Source: a virus
Lineage: Duplodnaviria; Heunggongvirae; Uroviricota; Caudoviricetes
IMG/VR virus record: IMGVR_UViG_3300022822_000008
Strand: one strand, 5' to 3'
Length of the DNA: 64,000 bases
The translations under genes and the position numbers were made by a program. The notes under the pieces were generated by a model. It did no database searches. It was not told where the DNA came from and was given only the letters and a program-made list of their open reading frames with translations. How positions within the stretch are numbered: position 1 is the stretch's first letter; each line of letters begins with the position of its first letter. Shown one piece after another: positions 4,605 to 47,205 of the stretch.

Positions 4605-4627
4605 CAATGTCAACAACTAATATAATT

Positions 4628-6067: not shown

Positions 6068-6092
6068 TTTACATCCTCATTATAAATTATAT

Positions 6093-6170: not shown

Positions 6171-6178
6171 TTATTAGG

Positions 6179-6254: not shown

Positions 6255-6263
6255 ATTAAAATG

Positions 6264-6333
6264 AGCAGGTAAAGGGAATCGAACCCTTTCTACACAGCTT
6301 GGAAGGCTGGCGGATAACCTTTATCTTACCTGC
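6264..6333 (-). tRNA. tRNA-Gly (anticodon TCC), no CCA
   Basis: Perfect acceptor GCAGGTA/TACCTGC; perfect T-arm AAGGG-TTCGATT-CCCTT; anticodon loop CTTCCAA. Confidence 0.65.
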
Positions 6334-6523
6334 ATTAAACTACTTAAAACGCTGGTTCATCCTTCTTGCGAAGATGTTGAACTATATTGGTATTACACTT
6401 AATTATATTATCTGCATTCGCGCCTATGTGTGCAGTACGTAATGATTCACATAGATTCTCTAATTCAACTAAAAACTCATAATGATCTTCTTTGTAATCA
6501 AACATAATAATTCCCAAATAATT

Positions 6524-6598
6524 TGGTACACCTAGAGAGAATCGAACTCTCATTGTCAGGTTGAAAACCTGGTGTCCTGACCGTTAGACGATAGGTGT
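6524..6598 (-). tRNA. tRNA-Glu (anticodon TTC), CCA encoded
   Basis: Perfect acceptor ACACCTA/TAGGTGT; perfect T-arm GAGAG-TTCGATT-CTCTC; anticodon loop TTTTCAA. Confidence 0.8.
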
Positions 6599-6604
6599 AA
6601 AAAT

Positions 6605-6682
6605 TGGTAGCGAGTAATGGAATCGAACCATTCTCTGTTCGGCTTATGAGACCGATGAGTTCTACCAGAACTCTAACTCGCG
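6605..6682 (-). tRNA. tRNA-Met/Ile2 (anticodon CAT), CCA encoded; body differs from the other CAT tRNAs
   Basis: T-arm AATGG-TTCGATT-CCATT; anticodon stem TCGGT/GCCGA with loop CTCATAA; D-stem GAGT/ACTC; C1-U72 mismatch. Confidence 0.7.
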
Positions 6683-6807
6683 TTTGTCATTTATTGGAAC
6701 GGTTATCACTGAACGATCCGCAATCAGTAGCTTTATCCGTTATAGTATTTTTCAACTAAACATATAAGGCAGGTATTTATTTCTTCGTGTTTCGATTCAA
6801 TATAAAC

Positions 6808-6837
6808 ATTATATCAAAAAACTAAAGCAAAGTCAAC
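6808..6837 (-). promoter_or_regulatory. Early promoter cassette with conserved leader, positioned to drive the tRNA sub-cluster 6682..6093
   Basis: GTTGAC-17-TTGATATAAT followed by TGTTTATATTGAATCGAAACACGAAGAA; no ORF follows, only tRNA genes. Confidence 0.6.
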
Positions 6838-7187
6838 CTTTATTTTCAATTATTCTGATATTATTCTTAATATTTTCCGGCAAATTTAAATGTGCAATTT
6901 TTTTGATAAAGTTATTTCGTGCATTTTCTTCATTCTTCGCCTTTAAAGTCAACCTTACAAATTCACCTTCTTGTATCCCATATTCACCAGTTACAATAAA
7001 AGTTTTCATTCAACCTCTTTAGGAAATAATGCCGCGACTGCAGTGAAAAGGTTAAGTTCTCTCAATGACAGTTTTGTAATTTCATCAACTGCCGCATCAG
7101 GATCTTCTTTAAACATTTCTCGCATTTCCCTAACATATTGCGCGCTTATTTCCGGGTGTAACATATCGTACTCCATAATAAAAAAAT

Positions 7188-7260
7188 TGGCACCAGAGTT
7201 AGGAATTGAACCCAACAGACGAGGGGTTGGAATCCTGTCGATACCCTGTATCTCTCTGGC
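7188..7260 (-). tRNA. Compact tRNA, anticodon ambiguous (CCA/Trp or TCC/Gly)
   Basis: Acceptor GCCAGAG/CTCTGGT; T-arm TTGGG-TTCAATT-CCTAA; the anticodon region GGTTGGAAT gives two alternative weak stems. Confidence 0.45.
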
Positions 7261-7270
7261 ATTGTAAATG

Positions 7271-7336
7271 TATTCACTCTAGGGATCGAACCTCGGCGTT
7301 CGTAGCACCGCGCTCTTCCATCTGAGCTAAGCAAAT
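7271..7336 (-). pseudogene. tRNA-Arg(ACG)-like remnant: D-arm, anticodon arm and T-loop present; variable loop and T-stem collapsed; acceptor does not pair
   Basis: D-arm GCTC-AGATGGAA-GAGC; anticodon stem CGGTG/CGCCG with loop CTACGAA; GGTTCGATCC T-loop lies directly against the anticodon stem (~6 nt missing). Confidence 0.35.
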
Positions 7337-7341
7337 ATCAG

Positions 7342-7433
7342 TGGCGGATAGACTAGGATTCGAACCTAGGGATCCCTGTAACAGGACCGACGAGTTAGCA
7401 ACCCGTTGCCTTAAGCCACTCAGCCATCTATCC
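7342..7433 (-). tRNA. tRNA-Ser (anticodon GCT), type II, CCA encoded
   Basis: Perfect acceptor GGATAGA/TCTATCC; perfect T-arm CTAGG-TTCGAAT-CCTAG; anticodon stem ACGGG/CTCGT with loop TTGCTAA; 20-nt variable arm. Confidence 0.75.
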
Positions 7434-7440
7434 AAATAAA

Positions 7441-7518
7441 TGGTGTGAACGGTGGGAGTCGAACCCACAAGCATCTGTTTCTAAAACAGATAGGTAAACC
7501 AATTCCCGTCACATTCAC
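7441..7518 (-). tRNA. tRNA with anticodon TAG (Leu-type anticodon) but a short type I variable loop
   Basis: Perfect T-arm GTGGG-TTCGACT-CCCAC; perfect anticodon stem TCTGT/ACAGA with loop TTTAGAA; acceptor GTGAATG/CGTTCAC. Confidence 0.55.
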
Positions 7519-7533
7519 AATAAAAGCATAATG

Positions 7534-7608
7534 TCAGAAAGGAAAGATTCGAACTTTCGACCCCACGGATCCAAACCGTGTACTCTGACCAGACTGAGCT
7601 ACTCTCTG
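7534..7608 (-). tRNA. tRNA-Pro (anticodon TGG), no CCA
   Basis: Perfect T-arm GAAAG-TTCGAAT-CTTTC; perfect anticodon stem CACGG/CCGTG with loop TTTGGAT. Confidence 0.8.
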
Positions 7609-7628
7609 ACATTATGCTCTTTAAATTT

Positions 7629-7704
7629 TGGTGCACCGCCCTGGATTCGAACCAGAAACCTTTCGATTATGAGTCGAGTGCTCTACCAGTTGAGCTAGCA
7701 GTGC
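7629..7704 (-). tRNA. tRNA-Met/Ile2 (anticodon CAT), CCA encoded; near-duplicate body of 3261..3336
   Basis: The internal ~60 nt are identical to the tRNA at 3261..3336 apart from a T-loop base; acceptor GCACTGC/GCGGTGC. Confidence 0.75.
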
Positions 7705-7727
7705 GTAATTTTAACTTTAAACAAATT

Positions 7728-7798
7728 TGGTGGAGAACCAGAGAATCGAACTCTGTTCTAGTCGGTGCAAGCGACCATCTGCATCCATGACGTTCCCC
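7728..7798 (-). tRNA. tRNA-Ala (anticodon TGC) with the G3:U70 identity pair, CCA encoded
   Basis: Acceptor GGGGAAC/GTTCTCC gives G3-U70; perfect T-arm CAGAG-TTCGATT-CTCTG; anticodon loop CTTGCAC. Confidence 0.8.
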
Positions 7799-7804
7799 AA
7801 TTTT

Positions 7805-8197
7805 TTACACCTTTAACTTATCATCTCTAGTAAGGTAGTTTTTCTTTCGCATAGTTGTTTTTGCTATAACATCTAATTCATCATTTCGTTTATCGTACTT
7901 AACCATAAAAGGTATGTTGATGTTTGAGTTAATGTCGAATAAAACTGCTTCGACACCTGGATTCATACCTCCGATTTTAGGTCCATGTTTTGCAAATACC
8001 TTCTTGAACATACTCATTAGCTCAACTATTGTAATTGCATTACCGTTTCTAGCATCGTTGACTCTTTCTCTAAAATGAGTACCAGATAAATCTATATCTA
8101 CACCAACAGCAGCGAATAACTTATCAGCAAATTTCTCTACTATACCAATATCTGTTCTTGAAAGTTCTTCTGAGAACATTTCTTTAAATCTTTTCAT
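7805..8197 (-). CDS. Hypothetical protein
   Basis: 130-aa ORF. Confidence 0.5.
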   Translation of the reverse strand: MKRFKEMFSEELSRTDIGIVEKFADKLFAAVGVDIDLSGTHFRERVNDARNGNAITIVELMSMFKKVFAKHGPKIGGMNPGVEAVLFDINSNINIPFMVKYDKRNDELDVIAKTTMRKKNYLTRDDKLKV

Positions 8198-8385
8198 TGT
8201 GACTACCTTATTATTTTTATCTATTTATCTATTTATGTACAAGGTTATCAACTAAATAATTATATGTCCAGTATCCTCACCTAAAAGAGGAATGCATCGG
8301 CCGTTTGCATCGCTAATCTTGACCCTATGCGTCCGAGGATTGGCATTTAGGAACGATCAATTTTGCATACTGGCATATAATTATT

Positions 8386-8461
8386 TGGTAGTGTGAAATG
8401 GATTTGAACCATTATCTAATCCCTTATGAGGAGATTTCTTTACCAATTAAGATACCACACT
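8386..8461 (-). tRNA. tRNA with anticodon CAT (fourth CAT tRNA), CCA encoded
   Basis: Perfect T-arm AATGG-TTCAAAT-CCATT; anticodon stem ATCTC/GGGAT with loop CTCATAA; acceptor AGTGTGG/TCACACT. Confidence 0.7.
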
Positions 8462-8472
8462 ATTAAAAAATT

Positions 8473-8548
8473 TGGTACTCGATGATGGGATCGAACCATC
8501 AACATCTGCCATGTAAAGGCAGTGCTCTGCCTATTGAGCTAATCGAGT
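8473..8548 (-). tRNA. tRNA-Val (anticodon TAC), CCA encoded
   Basis: Perfect acceptor ACTCGAT/ATCGAGT; perfect T-arm GATGG-TTCGATC-CCATC; perfect anticodon stem with loop TTTACAT. Confidence 0.8.
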
Positions 8549-8610
8549 TTTGGTGCCGAAACCCGGAACTGACCCGAGAACTAATGGTTACAAATCACTT
8601 GTTTTTCCAG

Positions 8611-9252
8611 TTAAACTATTTCGGCTATTTCGTTAATTGATTGCCAACTAAGTTGGCTCTTATTTAAAATTATTATTCTAACGCCATTCTGTTCTTCTAC
8701 TAGTTTTATCTTTTCACAATCTTTGAACCCAAGGCTTGGGTTGATGTTGTTAATTAGAAAGTCGTTTTTAGGGTCTAAATATAAATCATAGTCTATTAAA
8801 TATATGTCTGGTGTATAGGTTCTTGCTTTGCCTTTTGGGTCAATATAATTGAACCTCGAGCAAGTATCCCATTTAATGTCATTTTCATCTAAGCTCTTTG
8901 CAACTTCTAATTCGTAACTACTACCTAAAGTTTTACCTTTATATTTTATCCATCTAGACTGAGTTACGCCACCAAGGCCACGTTTTTTCGCGGCTATTGA
9001 TAATTTATTCCTAGCTTCTTGAGACCAATTACGATTTCTATTACGTTCGCTAATCTTATTTCTCGCGTCATCACTTAAAATATAAGGTATACCAGTTTCC
9101 GAAGATTTGATCCATTGATTGCTATTCTTCCTCTTATCATAATCAATTTTAGGGTCTGCAATTCTATCTGGATTTTCTGCGCATCTTGGTTGATGTGCGC
9201 TCAATACCCTTTTCTTTTCTATTTCTTTGTTACAATATTTGCAATTAAACAT
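8611..9252 (-). CDS. Putative free-standing homing endonuclease (N-terminal CxxC zinc finger, NUMOD3-like repeats, C-terminal nuclease-like domain)
   Basis: CKYCNKEI...HQPRC; repeated KIS/KLS.RNRNRNWSQEARNKLS motifs; located directly beside the tRNA cluster. Confidence 0.45.
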   Translation of the reverse strand: MFNCKYCNKEIEKKRVLSAHQPRCAENPDRIADPKIDYDKRKNSNQWIKSSETGIPYILSDDARNKISERNRNRNWSQEARNKLSIAAKKRGLGGVTQSRWIKYKGKTLGSSYELEVAKSLDENDIKWDTCSRFNYIDPKGKARTYTPDIYLIDYDLYLDPKNDFLINNINPSLGFKDCEKIKLVEEQNGVRIIILNKSQLSWQSINEIAEIV

Positions 9253-16545: not shown

Positions 16546-17451
16546 TCAACCATTATATTCTTCCATGATGATATCTTTTATTTTGCTCATATCGTTATAT
16601 TCTGGCAAATCACTCGCCTCAAGTTTTTCCGTAACACTATCATACATATCAGTGATTATAGAAACAGCATCTTCTTGAGGTACTTGACCTAATTTGATTT
16701 TCATAATTTCGTCAGCACGAACCAAAGGAAATACTAAATCTCTTGTGTCGATTATTTCCTCAAGTTGGATAATAGCCCTGACTGCATGACTCAATGCCTT
16801 CCAATCGCCACCTGAATGTGAACTTACTACAGTTCGGTCACCGTAACGACTTATTTTTTGCTCCAAACAAGTTTTAAGATGCTCCATACGACAGGTAATT
16901 TGATTGCGGCTGCCACAAATATCAATGTTAGCAATAATATTATCTTTATGTGGAGTGAACGTAATATATTTAAAATCAGATCTCATTATTTGTTCAGGTA
17001 TCGTGGTTTCAGCAACTCTAACACTATCGTGATAAACATGCAACCAATTATTTAGTTCCTGCATTTCCTGATAACGTCTAACTTTATGGCCATATTTCGT
17101 AGACATCGTTTTTATATAACCAAGAATTCCTCTCATATTTTTACAATAAATGCCAGATCTATTTTTCTGAATTTCATCCCAAGCAGGCGTCGAGTTTAGT
17201 GTAAATTCCTTCGGTGTGTGTATCATATCAACAGAAACAGTATCACCCTTGTCTAGCATGCTGAAATATTTTCCAATTGCATACAGCGAAGTGTCAATAT
17301 CATCAGTTTGTTTTTCTATGACAGGTTGAAAATTTCCAAATACAACATCTTCTAAAGTAGGAACAAAAAGGCCTTTGTAATCTGTATCGCTCTGTGGCCT
17401 AGATAATCCATACAGATGCGAACCAAATACTCCATTAAATAAAATTTTCAT
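16546..17451 (-). CDS. Pol-beta-superfamily nucleotidyltransferase (GS..DxD motif)
   Basis: GVFGSHLYGLSRPQSDTDYKG plus a downstream acidic residue in VSVDMIH. Confidence 0.6.
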   Translation of the reverse strand: MKILFNGVFGSHLYGLSRPQSDTDYKGLFVPTLEDVVFGNFQPVIEKQTDDIDTSLYAIGKYFSMLDKGDTVSVDMIHTPKEFTLNSTPAWDEIQKNRSGIYCKNMRGILGYIKTMSTKYGHKVRRYQEMQELNNWLHVYHDSVRVAETTIPEQIMRSDFKYITFTPHKDNIIANIDICGSRNQITCRMEHLKTCLEQKISRYGDRTVVSSHSGGDWKALSHAVRAIIQLEEIIDTRDLVFPLVRADEIMKIKLGQVPQEDAVSIITDMYDSVTEKLEASDLPEYNDMSKIKDIIMEEYNG

Positions 17452-25475: not shown

Positions 25476-25883
25476 TTATAATCCATCATAACCACGATGT
25501 CCAATCCATTTCTTGACATTTTCTTTGGAACCTCTGGCTGAATTGGGGAATTCATTATACATAAATTCTACAATACGAAGCATTAAACGACGGTTTACAA
25601 AGTCGGCACAACCGAACGAATCTGTAAGGTCATTTTCCAACACAGCATTAAGGAAACTGCCACATTCAATGCCATGTTTTAGGTAGCGATTGAGACTAGG
25701 TTCTAAGTGAACCAAGTCGGAATATTGTGTAAAATCTAATTCTCTCATACATTTCTCTTTGTTGTTTATTTCAATACAACCATTAAGGAAACTGCCACAT
25801 TCAATCCCATGATGTAAATAGCGATTAAGAACAACCCAGAAACTGAGCCAATAGCAAAACCTTGTAAAAAATCTCTCATACAT
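25476..25883 (-). CDS. Hypothetical protein whose N-terminal extension comes from a divergent ~145-bp tandem duplication that includes the 5' leader
   Basis: Internal repeat RYL(H/K)HGIECGSFLN; the peptide CIEINNKEKCM is the translated duplicate of the leader ...tgaaataaacaacaaagagaaatgtatg. Confidence 0.45.
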   Translation of the reverse strand: MYERFFTRFCYWLSFWVVLNRYLHHGIECGSFLNGCIEINNKEKCMRELDFTQYSDLVHLEPSLNRYLKHGIECGSFLNAVLENDLTDSFGCADFVNRRLMLRIVEFMYNEFPNSARGSKENVKKWIGHRGYDGL

Positions 25884-25912: not shown

Positions 25913-25941
25913 ATTATATCAAACATTCAAGCAGAGTCAAC
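25913..25941 (-). promoter_or_regulatory. Early promoter cassette (leader variant TTGTATTGAAATAAACAACAAAG)
   Basis: GTTGAC-17-TTGATATAATGG. Confidence 0.55.
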
Positions 25942-26671: not shown

Positions 26672-27148
26672 TTAATTTCTTCCATAACTCATTCTCCTGA
26701 AATATTCATTAATCGTCAACCAATCAGGAAAACGAACACTGCCAAACTGTATAAGTTCACCGTCGAATCTGTCTTGGCCTTTTCCTGATATACAATCATC
26801 TATCAATATATCGCCCTTTGATAGATGTTTAACTGGGCTTATGATGAGTCGTTGCAACACATCAAGGCCCAAATGTTTTTCGATGGAGTTTCTCTTTTCA
26901 GTGTAACAAAGGGGATTCATTACAGAAGGTGCTGTCAAGATGTAGGGGTCGAAATCTGTATGTTTCAGCAATCTATTAAAGGTTTTAATGGCACCTTCGA
27001 TTGGATGGAGATTTTCAAAGAAACCATACTGTGATTGTGGATATTGTATGCTTGGATTTTTTTTGATCATTTCATCAAAACGTCTAGTGAAATGGAACAT
27101 GGTATCATCCATATCAAAGTATACAATAATCTTAGTGTGAAACGTCAT
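26672..27148 (-). CDS. HAD-family 5'(3')-deoxyribonucleotidase-like protein
   Basis: N-terminal DxDxT motif VYFDMDDTMF. Confidence 0.55.
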   Translation of the reverse strand: MTFHTKIIVYFDMDDTMFHFTRRFDEMIKKNPSIQYPQSQYGFFENLHPIEGAIKTFNRLLKHTDFDPYILTAPSVMNPLCYTEKRNSIEKHLGLDVLQRLIISPVKHLSKGDILIDDCISGKGQDRFDGELIQFGSVRFPDWLTINEYFRRMSYGRN

Positions 27149-27648
27149 TACATTTGCTCTTTACAAATAGTCTGGATATATTGCATATATTCAATAGCAT
27201 CTTCGGGTGTGGAAGTGTCAAGTTGCAAATGAGGGAATGAGTCATGAAACAACCCAGCATCTATAGCTGCTTCGTTTCTGACATCGAAAGATTCGTCGTA
27301 GATAGAAATTGCCAAATCATTACCTAATAAAAATTTCAATTTGTCGGCTACAATCATGGCCATATCTGTGAGTATATCGATGGCCGTGTATTCTGGATTT
27401 TCTACAATTGCTTGATATCCACAAATGCAGGCGGTTGTTCCACAAAAGTGTTGCTGGTCATTCAGACTAAATCTATTATTGTTCGGTGTTATAAATTGAG
27501 ACATATCAAAATTTGCTTTTTCTTCTAATTTATCTGTAAACTTATTGTAGTCAATAACTTGCTGCATCGTGTTGATGAATTCTTGCAGATATAAAATCGC
27601 GTCTCTAGGTTCAGGTATTGTCGTTAACATTGGTTCTAATTTTCTCAT
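27148..27648 (-). CDS. Cys-motif family protein, tandem copy 3 (CGTTACICGYQAI ... DAIEYMQYIQTICKEQM)
   Basis: Translationally coupled triplet with 27648..28115 and 28115..28621; a distant fourth member is at 42675..43115. Confidence 0.5.
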   Translation of the reverse strand: MRKLEPMLTTIPEPRDAILYLQEFINTMQQVIDYNKFTDKLEEKANFDMSQFITPNNNRFSLNDQQHFCGTTACICGYQAIVENPEYTAIDILTDMAMIVADKLKFLLGNDLAISIYDESFDVRNEAAIDAGLFHDSFPHLQLDTSTPEDAIEYMQYIQTICKEQM

Positions 27649-28115
27649 TACATTTTTTCCTTACAAACAGTCTGGATGTATTCCATATATTCAATTGCAT
27701 CTTCTATTGTAGGATATTCACACTGTAAATGTCTGAAGTCAACATCTAGGTGTTTGCATTTTTTGGCGTATTTTCTTCGGCGCTCGGCCGTTGTTGAGTA
27801 AATTGAAAATGCTATATTTTCACCTAATCTTTTTCTAAGTTTGTAAGTAATTCCTAATGCAAGATTCCCAAGCTCGAATGCACATTTTTCTTTTGGGTTT
27901 TCTGCGATTGCTTGATACCCACAAATACAACCTGTCGTCCCGCAAAGATTATTTAGTTCACGCAAGTGCGAAGGCAAAACAAAGTCTTGCATCTTGAACT
28001 TTGCTTTTTGATTAAAATTGCCTTGCAGTAGACCGTTATAGTCATTAACTTTATGCATGGTATTAATAATTTCTTGTAAATAATCAAAAGATTCAGAAGG
28101 TTGTAGTATTTCCAT
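27648..28115 (-). CDS. Cys-motif family protein, tandem copy 2
   Basis: N-terminus FDYLQEIINTMHKVNDYN, CGTTGCICGYQAI, C-terminus DAIEYMEYIQTVCKEKM. Confidence 0.5.
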   Translation of the reverse strand: MEILQPSESFDYLQEIINTMHKVNDYNGLLQGNFNQKAKFKMQDFVLPSHLRELNNLCGTTGCICGYQAIAENPKEKCAFELGNLALGITYKLRKRLGENIAFSIYSTTAERRRKYAKKCKHLDVDFRHLQCEYPTIEDAIEYMEYIQTVCKEKM

Positions 28116-28621
28116 TACATCTGTTCCTTACAAATAGTCTGGATGTATTGCATATATTGAATAGCATCTAAAGGCGTTGGTGTATCTAAAATTAAATGTG
28201 AAAATGTTATATCATCCATCTCACAATCTTCAGCGTGTGACATTCTGTATCCGGAACTTTCTTCATAAATGCTACTTGCTAATTCTTCGCCCAACAATTT
28301 GTCCAGTTTATATGATACTTTAGCTGCTTTAGATTTAAGTATGACGGTGAGACTATATTGATTCGAAACATTATAAATGCTTAAATCGGCAAGTTTGTTT
28401 TCTTCAATTGCTTGATAGCCACAAATGCAAGCGGAAGTACCACAAAGATGCTCACTAGTTACACTATTAATTTTGATAAACTCAGTCATATTAAACTTTG
28501 TTTTTTTATTTTCATCAGGAGTAATTGCATTGTAGTCATTAACTTTATGCATGGTATTAATAATTTCTTGTAAATAATCAAACGCAAGTTTTGGATGTGG
28601 TACTGCATATTTAGTTTGCAT
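28115..28621 (-). CDS. Cys-motif family protein, tandem copy 1
   Basis: Same conserved blocks as the other two copies. Confidence 0.5.
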   Translation of the reverse strand: MQTKYAVPHPKLAFDYLQEIINTMHKVNDYNAITPDENKKTKFNMTEFIKINSVTSEHLCGTSACICGYQAIEENKLADLSIYNVSNQYSLTVILKSKAAKVSYKLDKLLGEELASSIYEESSGYRMSHAEDCEMDDITFSHLILDTPTPLDAIQYMQYIQTICKEQM

Positions 28622-28679
28622 ATTTTTCTCAATTTATTATCTAACAAAAAGGACCGACAATCGCCAGTCTATTTCTTTA

Positions 28680-29075
28680 CTATAACGCAGCGATACGAGA
28701 CTTAATATCCTCTTCGGATAAATTCTCAAGACCTGCATCTTGTTTACGCGACAGAATTTCAAGCAATTTCGCTTTTTCCGCTCTTTTGTTAGCGACCGCA
28801 GCACGTTCTAAGACTTCGTTTTGTCTGTCTGCGATTATTTCTTTCACAATATCCAATTGCAATTCAAGAGTAGATGATTTATTTGATTTTTTGACAACAA
28901 AGCTCTCATCAGCAAGTTCTTTAATTTGGCGACTCAGTGCAATAGCAACACCATCAAGAGAAGGACGAGTTGCTGCAGCTGACAATGGCAAATCAAAAAG
29001 ATCTTGTATTGTAATTTTGCCTGCTGGGCATGGAAACAAGAGTTTTAATGCGAGTACAGTTTTAAATTTGTTCAT
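28680..29075 (-). CDS. Hypothetical protein
   Basis: 131-aa ORF. Confidence 0.45.
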   Translation of the reverse strand: MNKFKTVLALKLLFPCPAGKITIQDLFDLPLSAAATRPSLDGVAIALSRQIKELADESFVVKKSNKSSTLELQLDIVKEIIADRQNEVLERAAVANKRAEKAKLLEILSRKQDAGLENLSEEDIKSRIAAL

Positions 29076-29166
29076 AATGTAATTCCTTTATTCGATTATT
29101 CGATTTATTGAGGTTGTATTATAACAAAATGGCAAACAGTTGTCAACCATTTTGTTTGTTTATTGA

Positions 29167-31182
29167 TTAAAAATTAACCTTCAATACCCGATTGAAAGAA
29201 CCTTTGACGCGAACAACAACACTGTTGCGTTGAGTTGAACTGAAACCTAATCCACTTAGTTGTTCCTTTGTGTGTTCAGCTTTAAATTTACTACTTAATA
29301 CTTCAAACACTTTACGATGTTTTACCAAACTTCCGTTCAGGAATTCGTTGTAAAAACCACGCGCGGGTTCAGGATTCAGACAACCATCAAGAATAAAGAA
29401 AACATGCTTGTTGCCAGTTTCACAGTTATCCCAATGATTAGGACTATTCATGATCATAGACACCTTCGTCCATTCGTTTGTATTTACACCCCAAACTTCT
29501 TTTGATGAAGTAGTACTTTCCATCGATTTGGTTATAACCACACCTTTAGATTTGCTGTAATTAAAATGCAACACAGTAACTTTTTTGCCATCGGGTAAAG
29601 CATCAGGATGTTTAATTAATTGAGTAGCGCCTTTTATATCAAGTTCCAATTCAAAACCCACATTAGATGTAGATCGTTTGGAATAATTATGAACAATAAC
29701 TTTATAATTACCTTCAATCATTGTCGATAAGCGATTCCAAGTAATATTTTCTACTGGGTCTGTTTTATTTGAAGGACCTCCAGCATTCATATCAACATCA
29801 AGGAGACCACCGCTGGCACCTTTCTTTGAAGAAAAGTATATAGCATTACCACTAGGTTCGATTACACTTAAGTCCAAATCGTCGCCATTGTACCACGCAA
29901 GACTAAATCGTAATTCACCAGTGACGGATCCACCAGCAGTCTTAACACGTTCCTTTATACCGTCTGTAACTTCTCCATTGTAACTCCAAGAGAAATTATT
30001 ATCCCATTTCAGCATGTTATTTGAATCTGCATCAACAGGCGCGACAACACTCATAAGATTATTAACTTGATTGTTGGCAACTTGCATCTCTATGCTATCA
30101 ACCTTCGGAAGCACTTTTGAGATGAAATCATCAATTGCAATTTCTTCAATTTTATCTGTTTTAGGTATTGAAGATTTAGTCGGTGATAGACCAAGGACGC
30201 CCATTTGTTCTTTAGCAGCTCTGTCTGCAAACAGCACATTATTGATCGTAATGTCATGAACATTAGCAAATCTGCGTTGAAGCGAATTTTCCAGACCAAG
30301 TTCAGTCACGGTCGCTTCTGCACTTGTTATCATGGACTGTGTAATAAGTGAAGTTGTGCGTTTGTAATTCGTTGGCGCAACTTTCGACTCAAATGATTTC
30401 ACTGCTTTTTCAAGTTCAACACCTTCACTTATATCAGCAATAAGAGTTCCAATTACATCATTGCGGAAACGAGCAGCACCTTTTAATTTTGCGGCAAGTG
30501 ACCATATAAAATTGGATTTATTTTGAGTTACAAGAACCGTATAATCAATTTTATATTGTTTGATTGTATTAACCAACTGACGTTTTTCAGTACCGCGATA
30601 TAAGCTGTTTTGTTCAATCAAGTCACTCACGATGTGGATCGCCTCAAGATTAAATTCACGAAGGCTACGTTCCAATACCTGCGAATCAGCAAGTTTACCG
30701 CCTGCGAAGTCACCGTATGATTTACCATGTGGCAATACATATTGTTTAGGAAGTTCAATAAAGAAATGCTCATGTTCAACGGTCTGACCTGAATCAGTCA
30801 GTTCGATATTCATTTTATTGCCGATTTTCTTTTCGTCAGACATAAATTGATTTCTGATATCAAGCGATTTTACATAAGCACTCATTGCATTAGCAACTTC
30901 TTGATAATAACCTTCAACTTCAATATCCCAAATACTTGATATGGATAAGTCTGCATTGATAGAAACTACTCCACCCATTCTACGAATAAATGTTTTGCAA
31001 CAGTTACAGTCATGAACAGTACGTTCTCGATGAATTGGATTTGTGCCTTCAGGAAAAGATGGCAGATATACATTATAATAGATTTCGTCTTTGTCGAAGT
31101 CAACTACAAATAAGGTTTCACCATTCGCTGTCATTTTCTTGAATTGTTTTTCAACTGCTTGTTGAAATATACTGAATTTCAT
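29167..31182 (-). CDS. Large hypothetical protein (671 aa), function unknown
   Basis: Long uninterrupted ORF with an HDCNCC motif near the N-terminus and a beta-rich C-terminal half. Confidence 0.6.
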   Translation of the reverse strand: MKFSIFQQAVEKQFKKMTANGETLFVVDFDKDEIYYNVYLPSFPEGTNPIHRERTVHDCNCCKTFIRRMGGVVSINADLSISSIWDIEVEGYYQEVANAMSAYVKSLDIRNQFMSDEKKIGNKMNIELTDSGQTVEHEHFFIELPKQYVLPHGKSYGDFAGGKLADSQVLERSLREFNLEAIHIVSDLIEQNSLYRGTEKRQLVNTIKQYKIDYTVLVTQNKSNFIWSLAAKLKGAARFRNDVIGTLIADISEGVELEKAVKSFESKVAPTNYKRTTSLITQSMITSAEATVTELGLENSLQRRFANVHDITINNVLFADRAAKEQMGVLGLSPTKSSIPKTDKIEEIAIDDFISKVLPKVDSIEMQVANNQVNNLMSVVAPVDADSNNMLKWDNNFSWSYNGEVTDGIKERVKTAGGSVTGELRFSLAWYNGDDLDLSVIEPSGNAIYFSSKKGASGGLLDVDMNAGGPSNKTDPVENITWNRLSTMIEGNYKVIVHNYSKRSTSNVGFELELDIKGATQLIKHPDALPDGKKVTVLHFNYSKSKGVVITKSMESTTSSKEVWGVNTNEWTKVSMIMNSPNHWDNCETGNKHVFFILDGCLNPEPARGFYNEFLNGSLVKHRKVFEVLSSKFKAEHTKEQLSGLGFSSTQRNSVVVRVKGSFNRVLKVNF

Positions 31183-32512: not shown

Positions 32513-34261
32513 TTAGATCGAATCAAGAACGTTTTTACGCACTTCTTCGAGCGTTGTTGTCAATATCATTTTAGAGTCCTTAAAAATCGTTTTGAGTTCG
32601 CCTTGTTTTTCTTGTTCCTGAGTTTGCCCATCATATTGAACATAGACGCCATCTTCAAGTTCGATACGTAATAAACCAAATGCAGATTTCTTTTTAGAAT
32701 CAGTTTTTGGGTCTTTACAAACATTAACAGAATTTCCGTTTTCTTCAATGTAAGTTGCTTTTACAGCAGAACCGTGGGTGTCACGACTAACAAACTGATA
32801 AGAATATGAACCAACACCCATTACGACAAGTGGAGCGAAACCTTTTTCCATCAAACGACGGTAAATTTCAGTTTGTCTAACAAGCGTAATTGAATCACCG
32901 TAGATTGCGCCAATTTGGTCGTGCAAGATTTTATATCCAACTTCAGTTTCAACACCACCAAAGATATCCCACAAACATTCAACCAAACCTTTGTCTTCGG
33001 AAGACAATTGCATCTCAGTAAATGTACAAAAGTCAAGATCATCACCGTAGTTATCAACATAATAATAAGTTTTATCATGGCGATTCAGTTCAGGTTCATA
33101 TGTGACTTTATAAGGAGTTCCGTCTGGAGCTCTATAGAATCCAGTTGAGCAGCTTATTGGGTTTGTGCAGTCTTCAGCCAATTCATCACAAAATTCCTCA
33201 TCTAATTCTGCAGCAACGGCTTCTTTCCAAGATTGTACGTTATCATTAAAATCAGTTACTTTTTTGAATTCACGACCACAAAGAACTTCTACAGGATCAC
33301 CAGAATCAGGCCGAACAACAAATTTACCAGAACGAGCAAGGATGTCTTCTTTCAATAAAGGAATACCTTCAGATACAAATTTCCAAAAGTCAAAAGAATC
33401 AGAAACATGCGAAAGGATTTTATTTTCTTTAACTTTAGTAAATAAATATCTGACATACATCAATTCAGCGTCGAATTTGCTAATTCCTTCTTTTTGAGCA
33501 ATTGCCATAATGAATGAAGTTGCTGTGCTGTGTTCAGTTGCATAAACGCTTTTACCTACACATTCACCTTTAACTTTCGCACCATAGTATTTTTCGACAC
33601 CCATAATACCAGCGATAGTATCAGTTCCGAATGAGCTTGTTAATTGACCCATTGAACTCATCATAGCGGCCTCCGGTCCGAACATACCGCGCGCCGAAAA
33701 ATCGTGATTCATAAACCAAGCAACACCTGGATCTACACCAGATGCCAAATAAGCTTTAATGGTATTTTTCAGATAGGCGCGTGAAGTTGTAGCTGAAGTT
33801 TGTAAAGGCCAAACGCATTGACTGTGTAGCGTTTCTAAGTAGTTTCCAATCCAAGCAAAATCATCATGAGTTGTTTGATAAGTAGTACTAGCAACACCGT
33901 AAGGAACCATAACACCTTCAGGTAGAGATTTAATTTCGAGCGGCAAATATTGCAAATCATGCAAAGCTTCAAAGTGCGAAACATCTACATCTTCATCAAG
34001 AATAGCATCAACATGTGACTTTAAAAACTTACAAGCGATAGCTTTATCAACTTGAAAGAAAGTCTCATTCCATTGTTTAATAAGATATTCAGTCACATAA
34101 TACTGATTACCAAAGTTCATAACACCGTCACGTTCTTCATGTGGGATATTACTCAACCGAGAGTTTCGGTTTGTCATGTTACCATAAACTTTAGTTATTC
34201 CATCGATGTAAGCATCTTTATGGAATAACTTATAAGCATCTGTTGCTAGTGCTACAAACAT
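32513..34261 (-). CDS. nadV: Nicotinamide phosphoribosyltransferase (NAMPT/NadV)
   Basis: N-terminus LATDAYKLFHKDAYIDGITKVYGNMTNR matches the NAMPT signature. Confidence 0.8.
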   Translation of the reverse strand: MFVALATDAYKLFHKDAYIDGITKVYGNMTNRNSRLSNIPHEERDGVMNFGNQYYVTEYLIKQWNETFFQVDKAIACKFLKSHVDAILDEDVDVSHFEALHDLQYLPLEIKSLPEGVMVPYGVASTTYQTTHDDFAWIGNYLETLHSQCVWPLQTSATTSRAYLKNTIKAYLASGVDPGVAWFMNHDFSARGMFGPEAAMMSSMGQLTSSFGTDTIAGIMGVEKYYGAKVKGECVGKSVYATEHSTATSFIMAIAQKEGISKFDAELMYVRYLFTKVKENKILSHVSDSFDFWKFVSEGIPLLKEDILARSGKFVVRPDSGDPVEVLCGREFKKVTDFNDNVQSWKEAVAAELDEEFCDELAEDCTNPISCSTGFYRAPDGTPYKVTYEPELNRHDKTYYYVDNYGDDLDFCTFTEMQLSSEDKGLVECLWDIFGGVETEVGYKILHDQIGAIYGDSITLVRQTEIYRRLMEKGFAPLVVMGVGSYSYQFVSRDTHGSAVKATYIEENGNSVNVCKDPKTDSKKKSAFGLLRIELEDGVYVQYDGQTQEQEKQGELKTIFKDSKMILTTTLEEVRKNVLDSI

Positions 34262-34263
34262 AA

Positions 34264-34593
34264 TTATTTTCCTTCTTCATTTTGAATTAATTCAAAATAC
34301 ACCACGGCGCGGCATATTGCTTTTTCGTGCGTTTCATCTTCATTTTCAAATGCGAGAAACCTTTCAAGTTCTTGATTTTCGTGGCACCAGTAATTAGGAC
34401 CAAGACAATCGTAATCTTCATAGCTTTTATTTACGTTGAATTCTTGTGCTATGTAAGCACCACCCGACAATGAAAAGGGATCCAATGGAGCAATCATCCA
34501 TTCATATGAGTTACATATTGCGATTATTGCTTCACTCAACTCGTCATCGGTCATATCGAATACTTTATAATATAATGGTAATTCTTCTCTCAT
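34264..34593 (-). CDS. Hypothetical protein
   Basis: 109 aa between nadV and the prs-like gene. Confidence 0.4.
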   Translation of the reverse strand: MREELPLYYKVFDMTDDELSEAIIAICNSYEWMIAPLDPFSLSGGAYIAQEFNVNKSYEDYDCLGPNYWCHENQELERFLAFENEDETHEKAICRAVVYFELIQNEEGK

Positions 34594-35471
34594 TGTATTT
34601 TACTCATTTTGTTTTTTATTCGTTGATCATCATTATAGGTATTTAGTGATTTTTCAGTTACATAGTCAGCAATGATATTATGAGTATAAATTGCGTCAAT
34701 ATGATCTTTGAATATCTCTAGACCTTTTGCAGCGATTAAGTGAGTGACGTAGAGATCTACTTCATATCCCATTTCTTTCAATTTTACGGCGAGTGGAATA
34801 AAAGTACCTCCACCGTCTAAGATATCATCCACAATTAATACTCTTCGCTTGGATTTAACTAAATCTGCATGTGATTTGCAATTCAATTCCACACTTTCAA
34901 TTCTGCCAGTTTCAAGATTACGTTTCTTTAATGCATACAAAACAGGAACTCCAGACATTTCAGATATCTTTTGTATTTTGGTAACAGCGCCAGCGTCAGG
35001 AGAAACTATATAATCGTAATCTGCCATTTGGATATGAGATTTTTTCAAAGTTTCCCGTAGGCAAGTCGCCTGTGTATTAATAACGTAGTTAAGATAATGA
35101 TGATCTAAGGCCTGTTCATTATGCGGGTCGTTGATGTGGATTTCGTCAAAGTTAAATCTTGACAACCAATCTTGAAATACTCTCAGAGGCTCAGTATTTC
35201 CAGTTTGAAAGATTCTATCCGCACGAGCGTAAGGTAAATATCCCAATACTAGAATTTCTTGAATATTATCCATATCGAAAGTATCATAAATTGCATAGTA
35301 AAGCATTTCCATTTTTTCTTTCATTAGAGGAATGTTGTTAGTTTCATCTGTCACATCGATTGAGATGTATTTTTCAATTACTGCATCTGGGTCAACACGA
35401 CAGGTAATAGCAGAATCAGAGAAGGTTAACCATTGTACGTCGATCACTTCGTTGTTAGATATTAGTTGCAT
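34590..35471 (-). CDS. prs: Ribose-phosphate pyrophosphokinase-like protein (PRPP synthetase family)
   Basis: VSPDAGAV..KI flexible-loop motif and PRPP-binding loop RRVLIVDDILDGGGT. Confidence 0.65.
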   Translation of the reverse strand: MQLISNNEVIDVQWLTFSDSAITCRVDPDAVIEKYISIDVTDETNNIPLMKEKMEMLYYAIYDTFDMDNIQEILVLGYLPYARADRIFQTGNTEPLRVFQDWLSRFNFDEIHINDPHNEQALDHHYLNYVINTQATCLRETLKKSHIQMADYDYIVSPDAGAVTKIQKISEMSGVPVLYALKKRNLETGRIESVELNCKSHADLVKSKRRVLIVDDILDGGGTFIPLAVKLKEMGYEVDLYVTHLIAAKGLEIFKDHIDAIYTHNIIADYVTEKSLNTYNDDQRIKNKMSKIQ

Positions 35472-39360: not shown

Positions 39361-40536
39361 TCATAATTTCATCCCTAACCAAGTTGAAAATTTATCCCAC
39401 TTAGTATTTGATCCTACATTAGATTTCACTTTAGACATCATCATATCTTCAACCTTCTTTGAATCAAGATATCCGAATATAAAGTAACCCAGAGACTTGT
39501 CGTCAAGTTGAGTAATGAATTCCAGCGCAATTGCTTTGCGATTGTCTCCGTACATATTCACAACAAACTTACACATCAGTCCTATTTCAAGTTCTTTATC
39601 TTCGATAGATTTGAAAAACAAGGCTTGTGTATCTTTAACTTTTTTCACATCAGCTTCAAGTAAAATAGGCAACACATCATCAACTTCGTTATTAATAATT
39701 AAATTAATAATATTACGCTGAGAACGTACTAAGTCTTTTACTTTATGAATGCGAACATACCACTCGTTTTTGATTTTAATCATATGACCGGAATCAAATC
39801 GAATAACGACACCCTCGCGTCCTTCCTCTAATTTTATTCCATCAGAAAACCCTTTTAAATTCTTATCAACTTGTCCGTATTCAGGTGCTTTATTAAAAGG
39901 AGGGTAATCTTCGAGAGGTAAGTATTCGCCTGTAATGTTATGACGAAGTGCTAACAAAACCAAATCAGCTGCTTCATATTCCAATACTATTTGATTATCA
40001 GGCGCGATAAATTCAAACAAAGGAGTCACATTAAATCTTAGACATTTTTCCATCCATCCGTAGGATATAGCAGAATCTTCCAATCCTGCAAGATAGGTTT
40101 CAGCCTGCATTGCAACATCAGTCACTCCCATTTTTGTACCTAAGCGAATATGACCATCAACCACAAAAGGGCGAATCATCGAACCATCCATTTTTTCCAT
40201 GACCGTATGAGGTTGAGTAATATCTACAACAGATGGTTGTGTTTCCTCACGTTCATTAAGATTGAAGAACTTATGGAATGGACGGCTGATGATTCGGCCC
40301 GTAGTATCGAAGATTAAACCGCGACATTCTCGGCGCATTGAACCAGTAAGAGGATTTCCTGCAATATCAAAAGTATCATCTTTACAGACGACATAGTTAA
40401 TTACAGTATAACCTTCTTTTTCGACTACAACAAACTCGGTGCGGCCTTCGATGTGCGGTAATACATCTTCGATTGTGTTGATAATTGGAAATTTATAATT
40501 CATTTTTTGCTTCCGCCTTGACCCATTGAAATCCAT
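39361..40536 (-). CDS. rnlA: RNA ligase 1 (T4 RnlA / gp63 family)
   Basis: ECRGLIFD, KFFNLNE and nucleotidyltransferase motif I EKMDGSM align with T4 Rnl1. Confidence 0.8.
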   Translation of the reverse strand: MDFNGSRRKQKMNYKFPIINTIEDVLPHIEGRTEFVVVEKEGYTVINYVVCKDDTFDIAGNPLTGSMRRECRGLIFDTTGRIISRPFHKFFNLNEREETQPSVVDITQPHTVMEKMDGSMIRPFVVDGHIRLGTKMGVTDVAMQAETYLAGLEDSAISYGWMEKCLRFNVTPLFEFIAPDNQIVLEYEAADLVLLALRHNITGEYLPLEDYPPFNKAPEYGQVDKNLKGFSDGIKLEEGREGVVIRFDSGHMIKIKNEWYVRIHKVKDLVRSQRNIINLIINNEVDDVLPILLEADVKKVKDTQALFFKSIEDKELEIGLMCKFVVNMYGDNRKAIALEFITQLDDKSLGYFIFGYLDSKKVEDMMMSKVKSNVGSNTKWDKFSTWLGMKL

Positions 40537-40932: not shown

Positions 40933-41475
40933 TTAATCAGTGTCAACGACTAATTGACTCATTAACAAACCAGCCATCTCGCCATAAATATCTATAAATA
41001 TCACAGTATCAAATCCTTCTTTAAGAGTAGGTTCTTGATAAGATTCCTTCATGCTTTTTAATATGCCTGGCGGTATAGTCTTACCTGGTCGACTTTCAAG
41101 ACGTCGATTCCATTCCGCAATATCTTTTTCTGTTTTTGCAGGCAAAAAAGTCTGGCAAACTACTGTATAGCCTGCTTTGGTCATACGTTCCACGATCACT
41201 TTTCGCTTTTTAGAAGTGAGGTTAGTTTGATCCCATATAACATCTTGATTGTTCACTATGGCTTGAGTTAAACCCACTTCGCAAACTTTAATAGCAGGTT
41301 TAATCGTTTCCATAAAAACATCATTATATGTTTTATCTTCCAATTTAGCTACGGATTCTATATAAGCATCCGACGAATACACAAAAATATTTTTTGATGC
41401 TTTAGACGTCATTGTGCTTTTTCCTGAGGCAGGAAGACCAACCATTACGTGACAGAACTTTTGTTTCGTTTCCAT
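40933..41475 (-). CDS. pnk: Polynucleotide 5'-kinase domain protein (T4 Pnk N-terminal-domain homolog) as a stand-alone ORF
   Basis: Walker A GLPASGKST; SSDAYIE and DQTNLTSKKRK align with T4 Pnk kinase motifs. Confidence 0.65.
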   Translation of the reverse strand: METKQKFCHVMVGLPASGKSTMTSKASKNIFVYSSDAYIESVAKLEDKTYNDVFMETIKPAIKVCEVGLTQAIVNNQDVIWDQTNLTSKKRKVIVERMTKAGYTVVCQTFLPAKTEKDIAEWNRRLESRPGKTIPPGILKSMKESYQEPTLKEGFDTVIFIDIYGEMAGLLMSQLVVDTD

Positions 41476-41933
41476 TAGAAATCTACTCCACTTTGATTAC
41501 AATCAAATACCCAGATGCCTTCTTCGCGCCACATTTTGACAACACGAGGACGATCATCGAATACCATATCAGGCATCTGTTTATAACTTTCTATGATACC
41601 ATATAAGATTTCTCTCTTTACGATTGAGTCGCAGCGATAGTCACCGAATCTACGCATGTATAAATCATCATATTCTCCCATGCCATTTTCGCTCAACCAC
41701 GTTTCAGTATCTTTTCGTGTATCGTCAGAACGCCCAGATGCAAAGATTACATACACATTTGGATCTTCAATATAACGGATGCAAACGTCAACGGTTGCTT
41801 TAATAGGCAAATCAAATTTAATGGCCTTATTAAAAGCAGGCCAGTTTTTTGGTTTACATCTCACATATTTTAAACGGTGATCCAAGTTTGCAACAGTTCC
41901 ATCAATGTCAAACACTACTAATAATTTACTCAT
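41475..41933 (-). CDS. Polynucleotide 3'-phosphatase domain protein (HAD; T4 Pnk C-terminal-domain homolog) as a stand-alone ORF upstream of the kinase ORF
   Basis: DxDGT motif VVFDIDGTVA; C-terminus DDRPRVVKMWREEGIWVFDCNQSGVDF closely matches the T4 Pnk C-terminus. Confidence 0.7.
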   Translation of the reverse strand: MSKLLVVFDIDGTVANLDHRLKYVRCKPKNWPAFNKAIKFDLPIKATVDVCIRYIEDPNVYVIFASGRSDDTRKDTETWLSENGMGEYDDLYMRRFGDYRCDSIVKREILYGIIESYKQMPDMVFDDRPRVVKMWREEGIWVFDCNQSGVDF

Positions 41934-42381: not shown

Positions 42382-42678
42382 TTAATCTTTCCTCATATAT
42401 GTATCTTTGGTTAATGGATGTACCATCAACATGTAGTCAATTGCTCTATGGCGGCTGACAAAACCGTAAACTAACGTAGGTATTTTATGTTTATATGTGT
42501 ACTCATCACCATAAACCATACATACCCAACTGTTATCATTTCTGGTGCCACTTTTGCCTATGCATCCTATGCTCGTTTCGCCAAGATGAAATGAATAATC
42601 AAATGGATGTGCATCAGATAATTTTTTAAATTTAAAATCATGAGGCACACCTTCGACAAATGCAAAATATTTACTCAT
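42382..42678 (-). CDS. Hypothetical protein
   Basis: 98-aa ORF. Confidence 0.4.
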   Translation of the reverse strand: MSKYFAFVEGVPHDFKFKKLSDAHPFDYSFHLGETSIGCIGKSGTRNDNSWVCMVYGDEYTYKHKIPTLVYGFVSRHRAIDYMLMVHPLTKDTYMRKD

Positions 42679-43115
42679 CTTAATTTAGACCTTAACATTT
42701 TCATATAAGATATTGCTTCTTTCAAGGAAGTGTCACTGTTTAAGTGAGGATGGTTTAATTCCTCAGGCGTGAAATAACCTGATGCCACAGCACGGTGCCT
42801 GCGTACCTTTTCCCCTGGCCCAGTGATAGAATCAGATAGGTCAAGGCCAATCACTCGAGTTATTTCTCTTTCAACAGCACTAGCTTCGTTTCTAATTCTA
42901 TTCTCATAATCTTCATCATTCTCTGTAGGTTGTCGATCCGATAGAGTACGCAAAGCCACAAAGCCGCATATACAGGCGGCATAACCACAAAAATGTGTGC
43001 TCTCATATCTAAATTGAACCCACTCTCTCATATCTAAAACTTCTTCCCTTGAGTTTGATAATTCTAAGGTTTCTATCAAATACGATAATAGTTGAACTTT
43101 ATTTAAACCATTCAT
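42675..43115 (-). CDS. Distant member of the CGY..CICG Cys-motif family
   Basis: HFCGYAACICGFVAL ... KEAISYMKMLRSKL. Confidence 0.4.
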   Translation of the reverse strand: MNGLNKVQLLSYLIETLELSNSREEVLDMREWVQFRYESTHFCGYAACICGFVALRTLSDRQPTENDEDYENRIRNEASAVEREITRVIGLDLSDSITGPGEKVRRHRAVASGYFTPEELNHPHLNSDTSLKEAISYMKMLRSKLR

Positions 43116-46185: not shown

Positions 46186-47205
46186 TTATTTTTCTTTCAA
46201 CAGATATTTATTGCTTATTGCTTTGAAACTTTTTTGGCCGTCATGGCTTTTAAATACTAAACCTTCTCGATTAGTACTATTTAGAATACTCATTCCGTCT
46301 GCATCTTTAATAATATCAGAAGCAGTTGTATATCGTACAGACAGAGGCGTATAGTATAAAACAGGCACTGAATCTATCCCAACACGTTTAAATTCGAATC
46401 TTGCATCTGGGGTTAAGTATCGTTGTGTTTGTATATCGAATATATCAAATACCTTAAATTGAGTTTTATCAAGTTTGTAGATGTTTTTCTGAATGCCTGG
46501 TCCGATAAGCTCACCTTGAATCGCAATATTATCCCAATATCTACCATCAATAAATCCACAATTTCTCATCTTTGTTTCGATATCTAAACGTCTTGCGCAT
46601 TCCCAAAAGCCATTACCTTCGGTCTCTTTAAGATCGAGATTTCTGCTACATACACCAAATTCACCGTCAATTAGATAACAGGTCATTGAACTGCCTTCTA
46701 ATTTTTCTGTAATTTCCCATGATTCAGGAGAAGTCAAATAGTTGGCAACATGAGACATACAATTTTGAATTCTTTCTTGATCTGTTTTTCTTATTTGCGG
46801 AGGGAAATTACCTTTGGCCATACCTGCAAGTTGAGCATTTACGGGAGGATCGTATTTAGCGATATTCAAAATTTCAGAAACATCGTCACCGATATCCCAA
46901 AAGTCAGTTAGGAGTTCAGTAGATAATATTAGACCTTGACTAATTTGCCCGCGCAATTTAATTGTTCTGAGGCGTTCACCTTTCACGCCTTCATACGTGC
47001 GAGGTTCTTTTCCTTTAGATAGAAACGGTGCCAAATCTATAGGTATCCAACTGTCAATTTCACAAAAAACAATTATCTGTCCTTCGTTGTATTCACCTTT
47101 TCTGATTACAACTTTCCAGCCGTCTACGGTCGCGACTTCAATTGCGTCAGCGTTTTCGATTGGGCTCACGTCGCTAATCATTCGTACTGTTGCCATCTGT
47201 CTCAT
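46186..47205 (-). CDS. Rnl2-superfamily RNA ligase with an extra N-terminal (OB-like) domain and no Rnl2 C-terminal domain (Rnl5/DraRnl-like architecture)
   Basis: Motif I EKLEGSS; GELIGPGIQKNIYKLDKTQFKVFDIFD aligns with T4 Rnl2 GEFAGPGIQKNV...FYVFDI; motif IV EGLVFKS; motif V KAISNK. Confidence 0.7.
   Translation of the reverse strand: MRQMATVRMISDVSPIENADAIEVATVDGWKVVIRKGEYNEGQIIVFCEIDSWIPIDLAPFLSKGKEPRTYEGVKGERLRTIKLRGQISQGLILSTELLTDFWDIGDDVSEILNIAKYDPPVNAQLAGMAKGNFPPQIRKTDQERIQNCMSHVANYLTSPESWEITEKLEGSSMTCYLIDGEFGVCSRNLDLKETEGNGFWECARRLDIETKMRNCGFIDGRYWDNIAIQGELIGPGIQKNIYKLDKTQFKVFDIFDIQTQRYLTPDARFEFKRVGIDSVPVLYYTPLSVRYTTASDIIKDADGMSILNSTNREGLVFKSHDGQKSFKAISNKYLLKEK

Follow-up and report, generated by a model that had tools for sequence, protein, structure and literature searches.

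What role do three small proteins with a common cysteine motif play for the tailed phage that encodes them side by side, with a fourth copy at a distance? The genes lie in a stretch of 64,000 nucleotides from IMG/VR record IMGVR_UViG_3300022822_000008 (Caudoviricetes), hereafter the window, and are called here copies A, B, and C (the array) and copy D. The window is part of a contig of ~210 kb. GC content is ~35%, every long open reading frame (ORF) is on the minus strand, and the phage is large and T4-like, without a close relative in culture. A megablast search of the 4-kb array region against 50,697 phage records gave no match, and the closest match of the NAMPT encoded in the window was at 54%. 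Our tentative answer, held with somewhat less than even confidence, is that copies A to D are early, metal-stabilized host-interaction proteins, that is, anti-defence or host-takeover binders.

The three consecutive ORFs described in an earlier note (168, 155, and 166 aa) were found at exactly the positions claimed, on the minus strand (the strand had been left unstated), and so was the distant fourth copy, an ORF of 146 aa (Table 1). In pairwise BLASTP comparisons, A and B were 45% identical (E = 5e-47), A and C 49% (9e-48), and B and C 43% (3e-43), and copy D showed 23 to 34% identity to A, B, and C (E = 2e-9, 5e-6, and 5e-14, respectively); by these values the similarity among the four copies exceeds chance by far. 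When the six-frame translation of the window was compared with a hidden Markov model (HMM) of the family, only these four ORFs were recovered, even at E ≤ 10. The three sequence blocks reported as common to the copies are present, but copy B reads QAIAEN where E or V had been given before EN. Copy A has an insertion of 11 residues C-terminal to the cysteine motif, and the net charge is −8 in A, +1 in B, and −16 in C.

The junctions differ from the ATGA overlaps first reported for the triplet. At A/B, B/C, and C/NT5C (the last with the deoxyribonucleotidase gene that follows the array), the stop codon TAA and the following ATG have one base in common (CAG ATG TAATG GAA, AAA ATG TAATG AGA, and CAA ATG TAATG ACG, respectively), and the 4-nt ATGA overlaps are those of copy D with both its neighbors. 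Each downstream gene has its Shine-Dalgarno sequence (AAGGAA or AAAGAG) inside the last codons of the preceding one (CKEQM), that of copy B being AAGGAA within the final codons of copy A. Copies A to D are real genes under constraint, since identical or nearly identical genes recur in independent metagenome assemblies and copy B shows a low ratio of nonsynonymous to synonymous substitution rates (dN/dS) against the allele of a close relative (see below).

The earlier remark that these proteins could not be matched to any family known to its author held for Pfam, NCBIfam, PADLOC, and the PDB, but the family had already been catalogued as PHROG 19396 (“unknown function”). Copy D matched this profile with E = 1.2e-9 (residues 18 to 138 on profile positions 23 to 160 of 170), and copies C, B, and A with 2.6e-6, 4.2e-5, and 1.6e-3 over part of its length. 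PHROG 19396 consists in essence of gp07 and gp09 from Marinomonas phage CPP1m and related phages. The two CPP1m proteins match it at 5e-101 and 6e-82, and an HMM built from the relatives of the window proteins scored gp07 at 1e-38 and gp09 at 1e-32. By profile, A to D classify as members of PHROG 19396, a membership that says nothing about mechanism because the PHROG carries no functional annotation. The family is uncharacterized rather than undiscovered.

Searches for better-known relatives gave little. Among A to D and 88 relatives, nothing scored above the Pfam threshold except an HNH domain in one fusion protein; NCBIfam and PADLOC scans of A to D gave no usable match, and weak matches to GDSL-lipase, IR1-M, TsoX, and dihydroorotase fell far under threshold. 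Profiles of 4 and 88 sequences retrieved from the PDB only designed helical proteins at E > 0.006, a chance level, and fold comparison against the PDB gave no match; in BFVD, the predicted fold of A0A1W5S465 agrees with that of the window family. A word-indexed protein search returned 13 to 15 relatives with uninformative names, and nothing was found in the literature on phrog_19396 or on zinc-binding or anti-defence early-gene paralogs.

A HMMER search of 1.84 billion (1.84e9) cluster representatives retrieved 225 clusters at E ≤ 1e-3, nearly all of 120 to 190 aa, and a pattern scan across 185,579 species genomes returned no relatives. We found members in no cultured phages other than murciaviruses of Marinomonas and Alteromonas phage R22Y, the latter being the only match (26%) in tblastn searches with copies A and D and the relative P0018. 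It is established that the family occurs almost only in phages and has no recognizable fold. The sole genome-borne member seen, in Glaciecola punicea, is in a phage-like stretch with an RNA-polymerase-like gene, DNA polymerase A, and helicases; in this stretch of the bacterial assembly, a Tad2-like gene (anti-Thoeris family; locus L007, LZXY01000001.1, positions 5206-5691) is found ~4.5 kb upstream of the single member.

Rare fusions were also seen: P0078 (307 aa) has an N-terminal HNH endonuclease, P0080 (298 aa) an acidic C-terminal extension of 150 aa, and P0114 (241 aa) a C-terminal extension that matches PHROG 20106. DNA binding as a general function, prompted by P0078, was rejected because the family is acidic (median isoelectric point [pI], 4.85) and the HNH fusion is a single case.

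Conservation was counted over 162 cluster representatives, mostly at ≤50% identity, and residues are numbered as in copy A, in which the motif H58-L-C60-GTSA-C65-I-C67-G-Y69 is encoded at ~28450..28415. The motif had been presented as an invariant CxxxCxCGY. Its spacing is in fact C-x4-C-x-C-G-Y, and it is invariant within the window only: C60, C65, and G68 are kept in 158, 159, and 159 representatives, whereas the third cysteine is present in 88 (54%) and is otherwise L, I, M, V, or A. Position 67 looks like a core position and not a ligand. H58 is found in 90 of the 162. Position 69, one helical turn past C65, is H, D, or E in 56 of the 72 sequences without H58, versus 9 of the 90 that have it (Fisher p = 2e-19), and the pair 58/69 ranks 11th of ~8000 pairs (z = 5.8) by mutual information with average product correction (MI-APC). 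A ligand provided from either of two positions that flank both cysteines is a prediction of a metal site, and leads us to propose a candidate site formed by C60, C65, and either H58 or [HDE]69. H142 (152/162) is a possible fourth ligand. The conservation pattern and the 58/69 exchange fit a structural zinc knuckle or treble-clef-like site, which would be possible. The metal or redox site suggested earlier is plausible on these grounds, but with a different set of ligands in which the third cysteine is dispensable. Outside the motif, M45 is kept in 154 representatives, S117 in 143, and R126 in 161 (the remaining member has a gap in that column); position 156 is Y or F in 154 and covaries with S117.

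The AlphaFold2 models of copy A (15 sequences; predicted local distance difference test [pLDDT], 81.6; predicted template modeling score [pTM], 0.81) and copy D (144 sequences; 87.7 and 0.85) are alike and almost entirely helical. A long N-terminal helix is followed by a poorly defined loop, a short helix that starts at the second cysteine, three central helices, a short H-L turn, and a C-terminal helix. In the model of copy D, the helix begins at C48, and H41-x-C43 is part of a hairpin loop whose pLDDT is < 50. The top MI-APC pairs over the 162 sequences (12-109, 13-110, 18-161, 24-150, 23-70, and 117-156) indicate that helix 1 packs on the central and last helices, supporting a bundle independently of AlphaFold.

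The tandem triplication reported for this locus is true of the genome in the window, but it represents one state of an array that holds two to four copies in relatives. In these relatives the slot has a fixed order, DUF8224 gene (671 aa), 131-aa gene, array, and NT5C (also in L003, L005, and L023), with NT5C as the conserved border in L003, L005, L006, and L023. Two copies fill it in L004, three in the window and L005, and four in L023. Altogether, 8 of ~11 independent loci have multicopy arrays; L008, a T4-like contig that encodes UvsX, gp41, frd, and td, also has three in tandem, and two each are found in L009, L010 (gp07 and gp09 of CPP1m), L012, L015, L001, and L021, while L007, L011, and L017 are single-copy loci. 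An ortholog of copy D (P0011, 52%) adjoins a second copy in L021/L022.

One variant, the 98.8%-identical contig L004, has two copies and passes straight into NT5C, without copy C. Between its positions 1-1608 and window positions 28944-26849 there were 0 differences in the terminal part of the 131-aa gene and the whole of copy A, 16 differences that all fall in copy B, and then ~6% divergence in NT5C; the A/B border is a sharp recombination breakpoint in this natural variant. An assembly artefact is unlikely because the longest exact match between B and C is 12 nt, against an assembler k-mer of 141, and the junction has its own 8-nt filler. The differences in copy B are 8 synonymous and 8 nonsynonymous (Nei-Gojobori), with dN/dS = 0.24, and at the sequence level we regard purifying selection on the array genes as established. 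Copies A and B have in common an identical tract of 50 nt (Table 1) in which the same codon is used at 16 of 18 identical residues, compared with 10 of 22 in mid-gene, a signature of gene conversion.

In neighbor-joining trees of the variable parts only, A, B, and C grouped with P0004 and P0008 (bootstrap 100), apart from the P0007/P0016 and P0006/P0009 types that stand first and second in the arrays of L005 and L023. The grouping suggests that the triplet of the window is a lineage-specific expansion of one type and not a set of three ancient orthologs, a provisional reading given the short alignments, and it led us to reject one-to-one orthology with the triplet of L005. In all arrays the variable parts are the loop at 34-57 (8 to 67% identity between copies; 8 to 32% in most) and the middle, 76-141 (22 to 49%). 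The motif (44 to 89%; 67 to 89% in the four T4-like arrays) and the C-terminal helix (45 to 85%) are better kept. Rapid birth-and-death evolution of the family is established.

The array belongs to a unit that runs from a predicted promoter through the 131-aa gene, a hairpin, and copies A, B, and C to NT5C (Table 1). The hairpin is possibly a leaky terminator or attenuator. With its promoter predicted by consensus, the unit has the layout of an early operon read by the host polymerase, and we regard the early-operon position as established. This promoter and the position of the CPP1m homologs, upstream of the phage RNA polymerase gene, support early expression. The context, namely, the predicted promoter, the position of the T7-like homologs, the small acidic size of the proteins, and their rapid turnover, is what points to an early-region role in host takeover or anti-defence.

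Table 1. Features of the array, its transcription unit, and the distant copy D in the window
Feature	Position	Strand	Remarks
Predicted sigma-70 promoter (TTGACA-17-TATAAT, TG extension)	29118..29146	−	12/12 consensus match; heads transcription unit with the array
131-aa gene	28680..29075	−	PHROG 2018 (unknown function); first gene past the predicted promoter
Terminator-like hairpin, then CTTTTTGTT	28652..28669	−	Between 131-aa gene and copy A; imperfect stem
Copy A	28115..28621	−	168 aa; pI 5.05; from ORF list and BLASTP
50-nt tract in copy A	28533..28582	−	Encodes FDYLQEIINTMHKVNDY; identical to copy B tract
Copy B	27648..28115	−	155 aa; pI 7.56; from ORF list and BLASTP
50-nt tract in copy B	28039..28088	−	Identical to copy A tract
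Copy C	27148..27648	−	166 aa; pI 4.27; from ORF list and BLASTP
NT5C-type 5'(3')-deoxyribonucleotidase	26672..27148	−	TAATG junction with copy C; downstream border of the array
Next strong predicted promoter	25940..25913		Consensus match; beyond the array unit
Copy D	42675..43115	−	146 aa; pI 5.61; divergent subfamily; motif HFCGYAACICGF

Under the reading that we favor, the family to which A to D belong consists of proteins of ~150 aa, for the most part acidic and predominantly alpha-helical, that would be transcribed from early promoters of the host type. Each would fold as a helical bundle with the N-terminal helix against the C-terminal one. A short knuckle (H-x-C-G-T-A-A-C), located where the second helix begins, would most likely hold a structural metal ion, probably Zn2+, through C60 and C65 plus H58 or an H, D, or E one helical turn past C65, possibly together with H142. 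The scaffold (helix 1, knuckle, and last helix) would be held similar among copies, partly via gene conversion, and divergence, also of net charge, is concentrated in the pre-knuckle loop (34-57) and the helices of the center (76-141). The array would expand and contract by tandem duplication and deletion at its fixed slot, from the 131-aa gene to NT5C, and the variable surface of each paralog would be directed at a different or changing host target. Homology, the conservation pattern, the 58/69 exchange, the variation in copy number, the conversion tract, purifying selection, and the early-region position are observed directly; metal binding, a protein-binding function, and an anti-defence role we infer. 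The wider proposition, that an undescribed metal-knuckle helical fold serves as a diversifiable scaffold against host immunity or housekeeping proteins, its core and metal site keeping the shape and its loop and central helices being exchanged through duplication, deletion, and conversion, and defines an anti-defence family with copy-number plasticity in marine T4-like and T7-like phages, seems to us somewhat unlikely.

Several observations weigh against the favored reading. Nothing from experiment or homology was found to tie the family to a defence system or to a host target. R126 and S117 are near-invariant within the supposedly variable middle, a pattern suggestive of a pocket for catalysis or ligand binding more than of a binding surface free to diversify. 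In 10 of the 162 representatives, F or Y stands in place of H142, which is unusual for a metal ligand, and residues 45-47 of the copy D model, between the two cysteines, are called as beta strand. The allelic dN/dS shows no positive selection at that time scale. Finally, in T4-like relatives the array is placed amid nucleotide-metabolism genes (NT5C, DHFR, thymidylate synthase, and NAMPT), a neighborhood that could point to a metabolic role.

In the main rival explanation, A to D would be small metal-dependent enzymes, or small-molecule “sponges,” acting on a nucleotide-type ligand, with the Cys/His/Asp metal site, R126, and S117 forming the pocket and the paralogs differing in preference. The conservation of R126, S117, and Y/F156 and the covariation of the last two would fit, as would the metabolic genes that the array adjoins (NT5C) or lies near, and Asp or Glu as alternative fourth ligand together with a perhaps dispensable H142 is typical rather of catalytic or open metal sites. 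However, we found no similarity to any enzyme family or fold, the T7-like homologs sit among early and not metabolic genes, and two to four copies with 25 to 45% identity in the would-be pocket are rare for enzymes; adjacency within T4-like hyperplastic regions, moreover, is weak evidence. We consider this explanation unlikely.

Alternatively, the paralogs could be subunits of a single hetero-oligomer, several copies being needed jointly, with the face of helix 1 and the last helix, or a metal held between chains, as the interface. Most loci, in T4-like and T7-like phages, do have at least two adjacent copies, translational coupling favors equimolar synthesis, helix 1 and the C-terminal block are homogenized among copies, and the three ligands that alone are firmly conserved would allow an interfacial site. 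The single-copy loci speak against it, as do the near-identical phage that lacks copy C (L004) and the non-orthologous composition of arrays of two to four copies. By covariation, helix 1 and the last helix touch inside a single chain, so that the fold accounts for their conservation. On balance, a hetero-oligomer appears rather improbable.

Two further explanations fit the data poorly. The C-x4-C pair could be a redox-active dithiol (a thiol switch or small oxidoreductase) instead of a metal site, as two near-invariant cysteines five residues apart at a helix N terminus might suggest; we find this very improbable, given that the motif lacks the CxxC spacing, the fold does not resemble thioredoxin, and the exchange of H58 for H/D/E69 and the conserved H142 are predicted by a metal site and not by a disulfide. 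That the copies are dispensable, fast-evolving ORFs of a hyperplastic region, persisting by duplication and drift without distinct roles, is likewise very improbable, for in spite of the polymorphic copy number, the copy lacking in a close relative, and the rarity of the family among cultured phages, the motif and a dozen positions are conserved across the divergent representatives, dN/dS is low, unrelated phage groups retain the family, and every copy keeps its Shine-Dalgarno sequence and coupled start.

If the host-interaction reading is true, phages as unlike as the T4-like myoviruses and T7-like podoviruses of marine Gammaproteobacteria would use one compact scaffold early in infection, in an array that gains and loses copies within a few percent of sequence divergence. 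Such families have repeatedly proved to be inhibitors of bacterial immunity or host machinery. The natural two-, three-, and four-copy variants and the cultured two-copy Marinomonas phages make the idea directly testable. If the proteins are enzymes or signal binders instead, the near-invariant Arg and Ser with the metal site would constitute a new small fold for catalysis or binding. At present, this is a well-delimited uncharacterized family with a testable metal-site prediction, and its mechanism is a proposal.

Other parts of the window deserve a description. It encodes thymidylate synthase, DNA ligase, two RNA ligases, PNKP phosphatase, SHMT, and NAMPT, as well as 23 tRNA genes at 611-8625 (minus strand). 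One ARAGORN call is a “tRNA-Stop” with anticodon TTA (ochre-suppressor-like) and another has an aberrant two-base anticodon (see especially 2982-3056 and 6177-6254); the array paralogs themselves end in TAA. About 4 kb upstream of the array, NAMPT is found beside a 293-aa protein with a phosphoribosyltransferase domain (32513-34261 and 34590-35471, minus strand), and the pair, present also in the related contigs L003 and L005, suggests an NAD+ salvage module. The phage SHMT (Pfam, 1e-146) is accompanied by an RNA-repair set of an Rnl1-like ligase, an Rnl2-like ligase, a PNKP phosphatase domain, and RlaP (57077-58234; 39361-40536; 46186-47205; 41475-41933; 16546-17451). A 135-aa ORF at 25476-25883 (minus strand), without Pfam or PHROG match, has an internal direct repeat, LNRYL[H/K]HGIECGSFLN. 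The 671-aa DUF8224/DUF2135 protein (PHROG 1735; 29167-31182, minus strand) is kept in >500 phage records, several of which name it “DNA-directed RNA polymerase” in GenBank without Pfam support, in what looks like annotation carry-over.

Among known systems, zinc-binding anti-sigma (ZAS) domains such as those of RsrA, ChrR, and RslA (H-x3-C-x2-C) are likewise small and helical, hold zinc by His and Cys, and act by binding a partner protein. The H-x3-C-x2-C motif in a four-helix anti-sigma domain (ZAS, zf-HC2) was not found in our proteins. Thioredoxin-like and CxxC redox proteins were discarded on the C-x4-C spacing and the almost wholly helical models, and DinB/YfiT-like four-helix bundles for want of a His-triad metal site and a structural match. 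As to context, the class I early genes of T7-like phages and the early ORFs of T4-like “hyperplastic” regions (e.g., Ocr) are small and acidic, are read by the host RNA polymerase from strong sigma-70 promoters, lie where the genome varies most, and come and go among close relatives. The resemblance of the window family to them is one of context only: it differs in its conserved Cys/His motif and multicopy arrays, and no similarity to Ocr or another characterized early protein was detected in sequence or fold.

More distant relatives are phage proteins with the sequence CGTAGCAIGH and PHROG 889, which have in common with the family the segment F-x-M-x-x-[FWY]...C-G-T-x-x-C-x-x-G. The CGTAGCAIGH proteins, all “hypothetical,” differ in that their N-terminal half alone can be aligned (E of ~1e-4 to the family HMM), the C-terminal half being unlike. 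One of them, of 184 aa (NCGTAGCAIGH, acidic tail), stands beside two family copies in L001 (9782-10393; equivalent to contig L016) and L015 (4191-4802), and tblastn found its “hypothetical” homologs in Agrobacterium/Rhizobium phages of ~150 kb and in others, commonly with two locations in one record. A wider superfamily, perhaps also prone to multiple copies, is hinted at.

The nearest known counterparts are gp07 (YP_009789996.1) and gp09 (YP_009789998.1) of Marinomonas phage CPP1m (Autographiviridae, Murciavirus), which belong to the same family by profile and agree in size, motif, and predicted fold. Identity is only ~25 to 30%, CPP1m is a T7-like phage in contrast to the ~210-kb T4-like genome of the window, and its two copies are separated by an unrelated gene, without translational coupling. 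Like the window array, however, they are present in more than one copy per genome (two) and in the early region, upstream of the phage RNA polymerase gene. In murciaviruses, the region upstream of that gene has been described as host-transcribed, early-injected, and the most variable part of the genome (PMC12455610).

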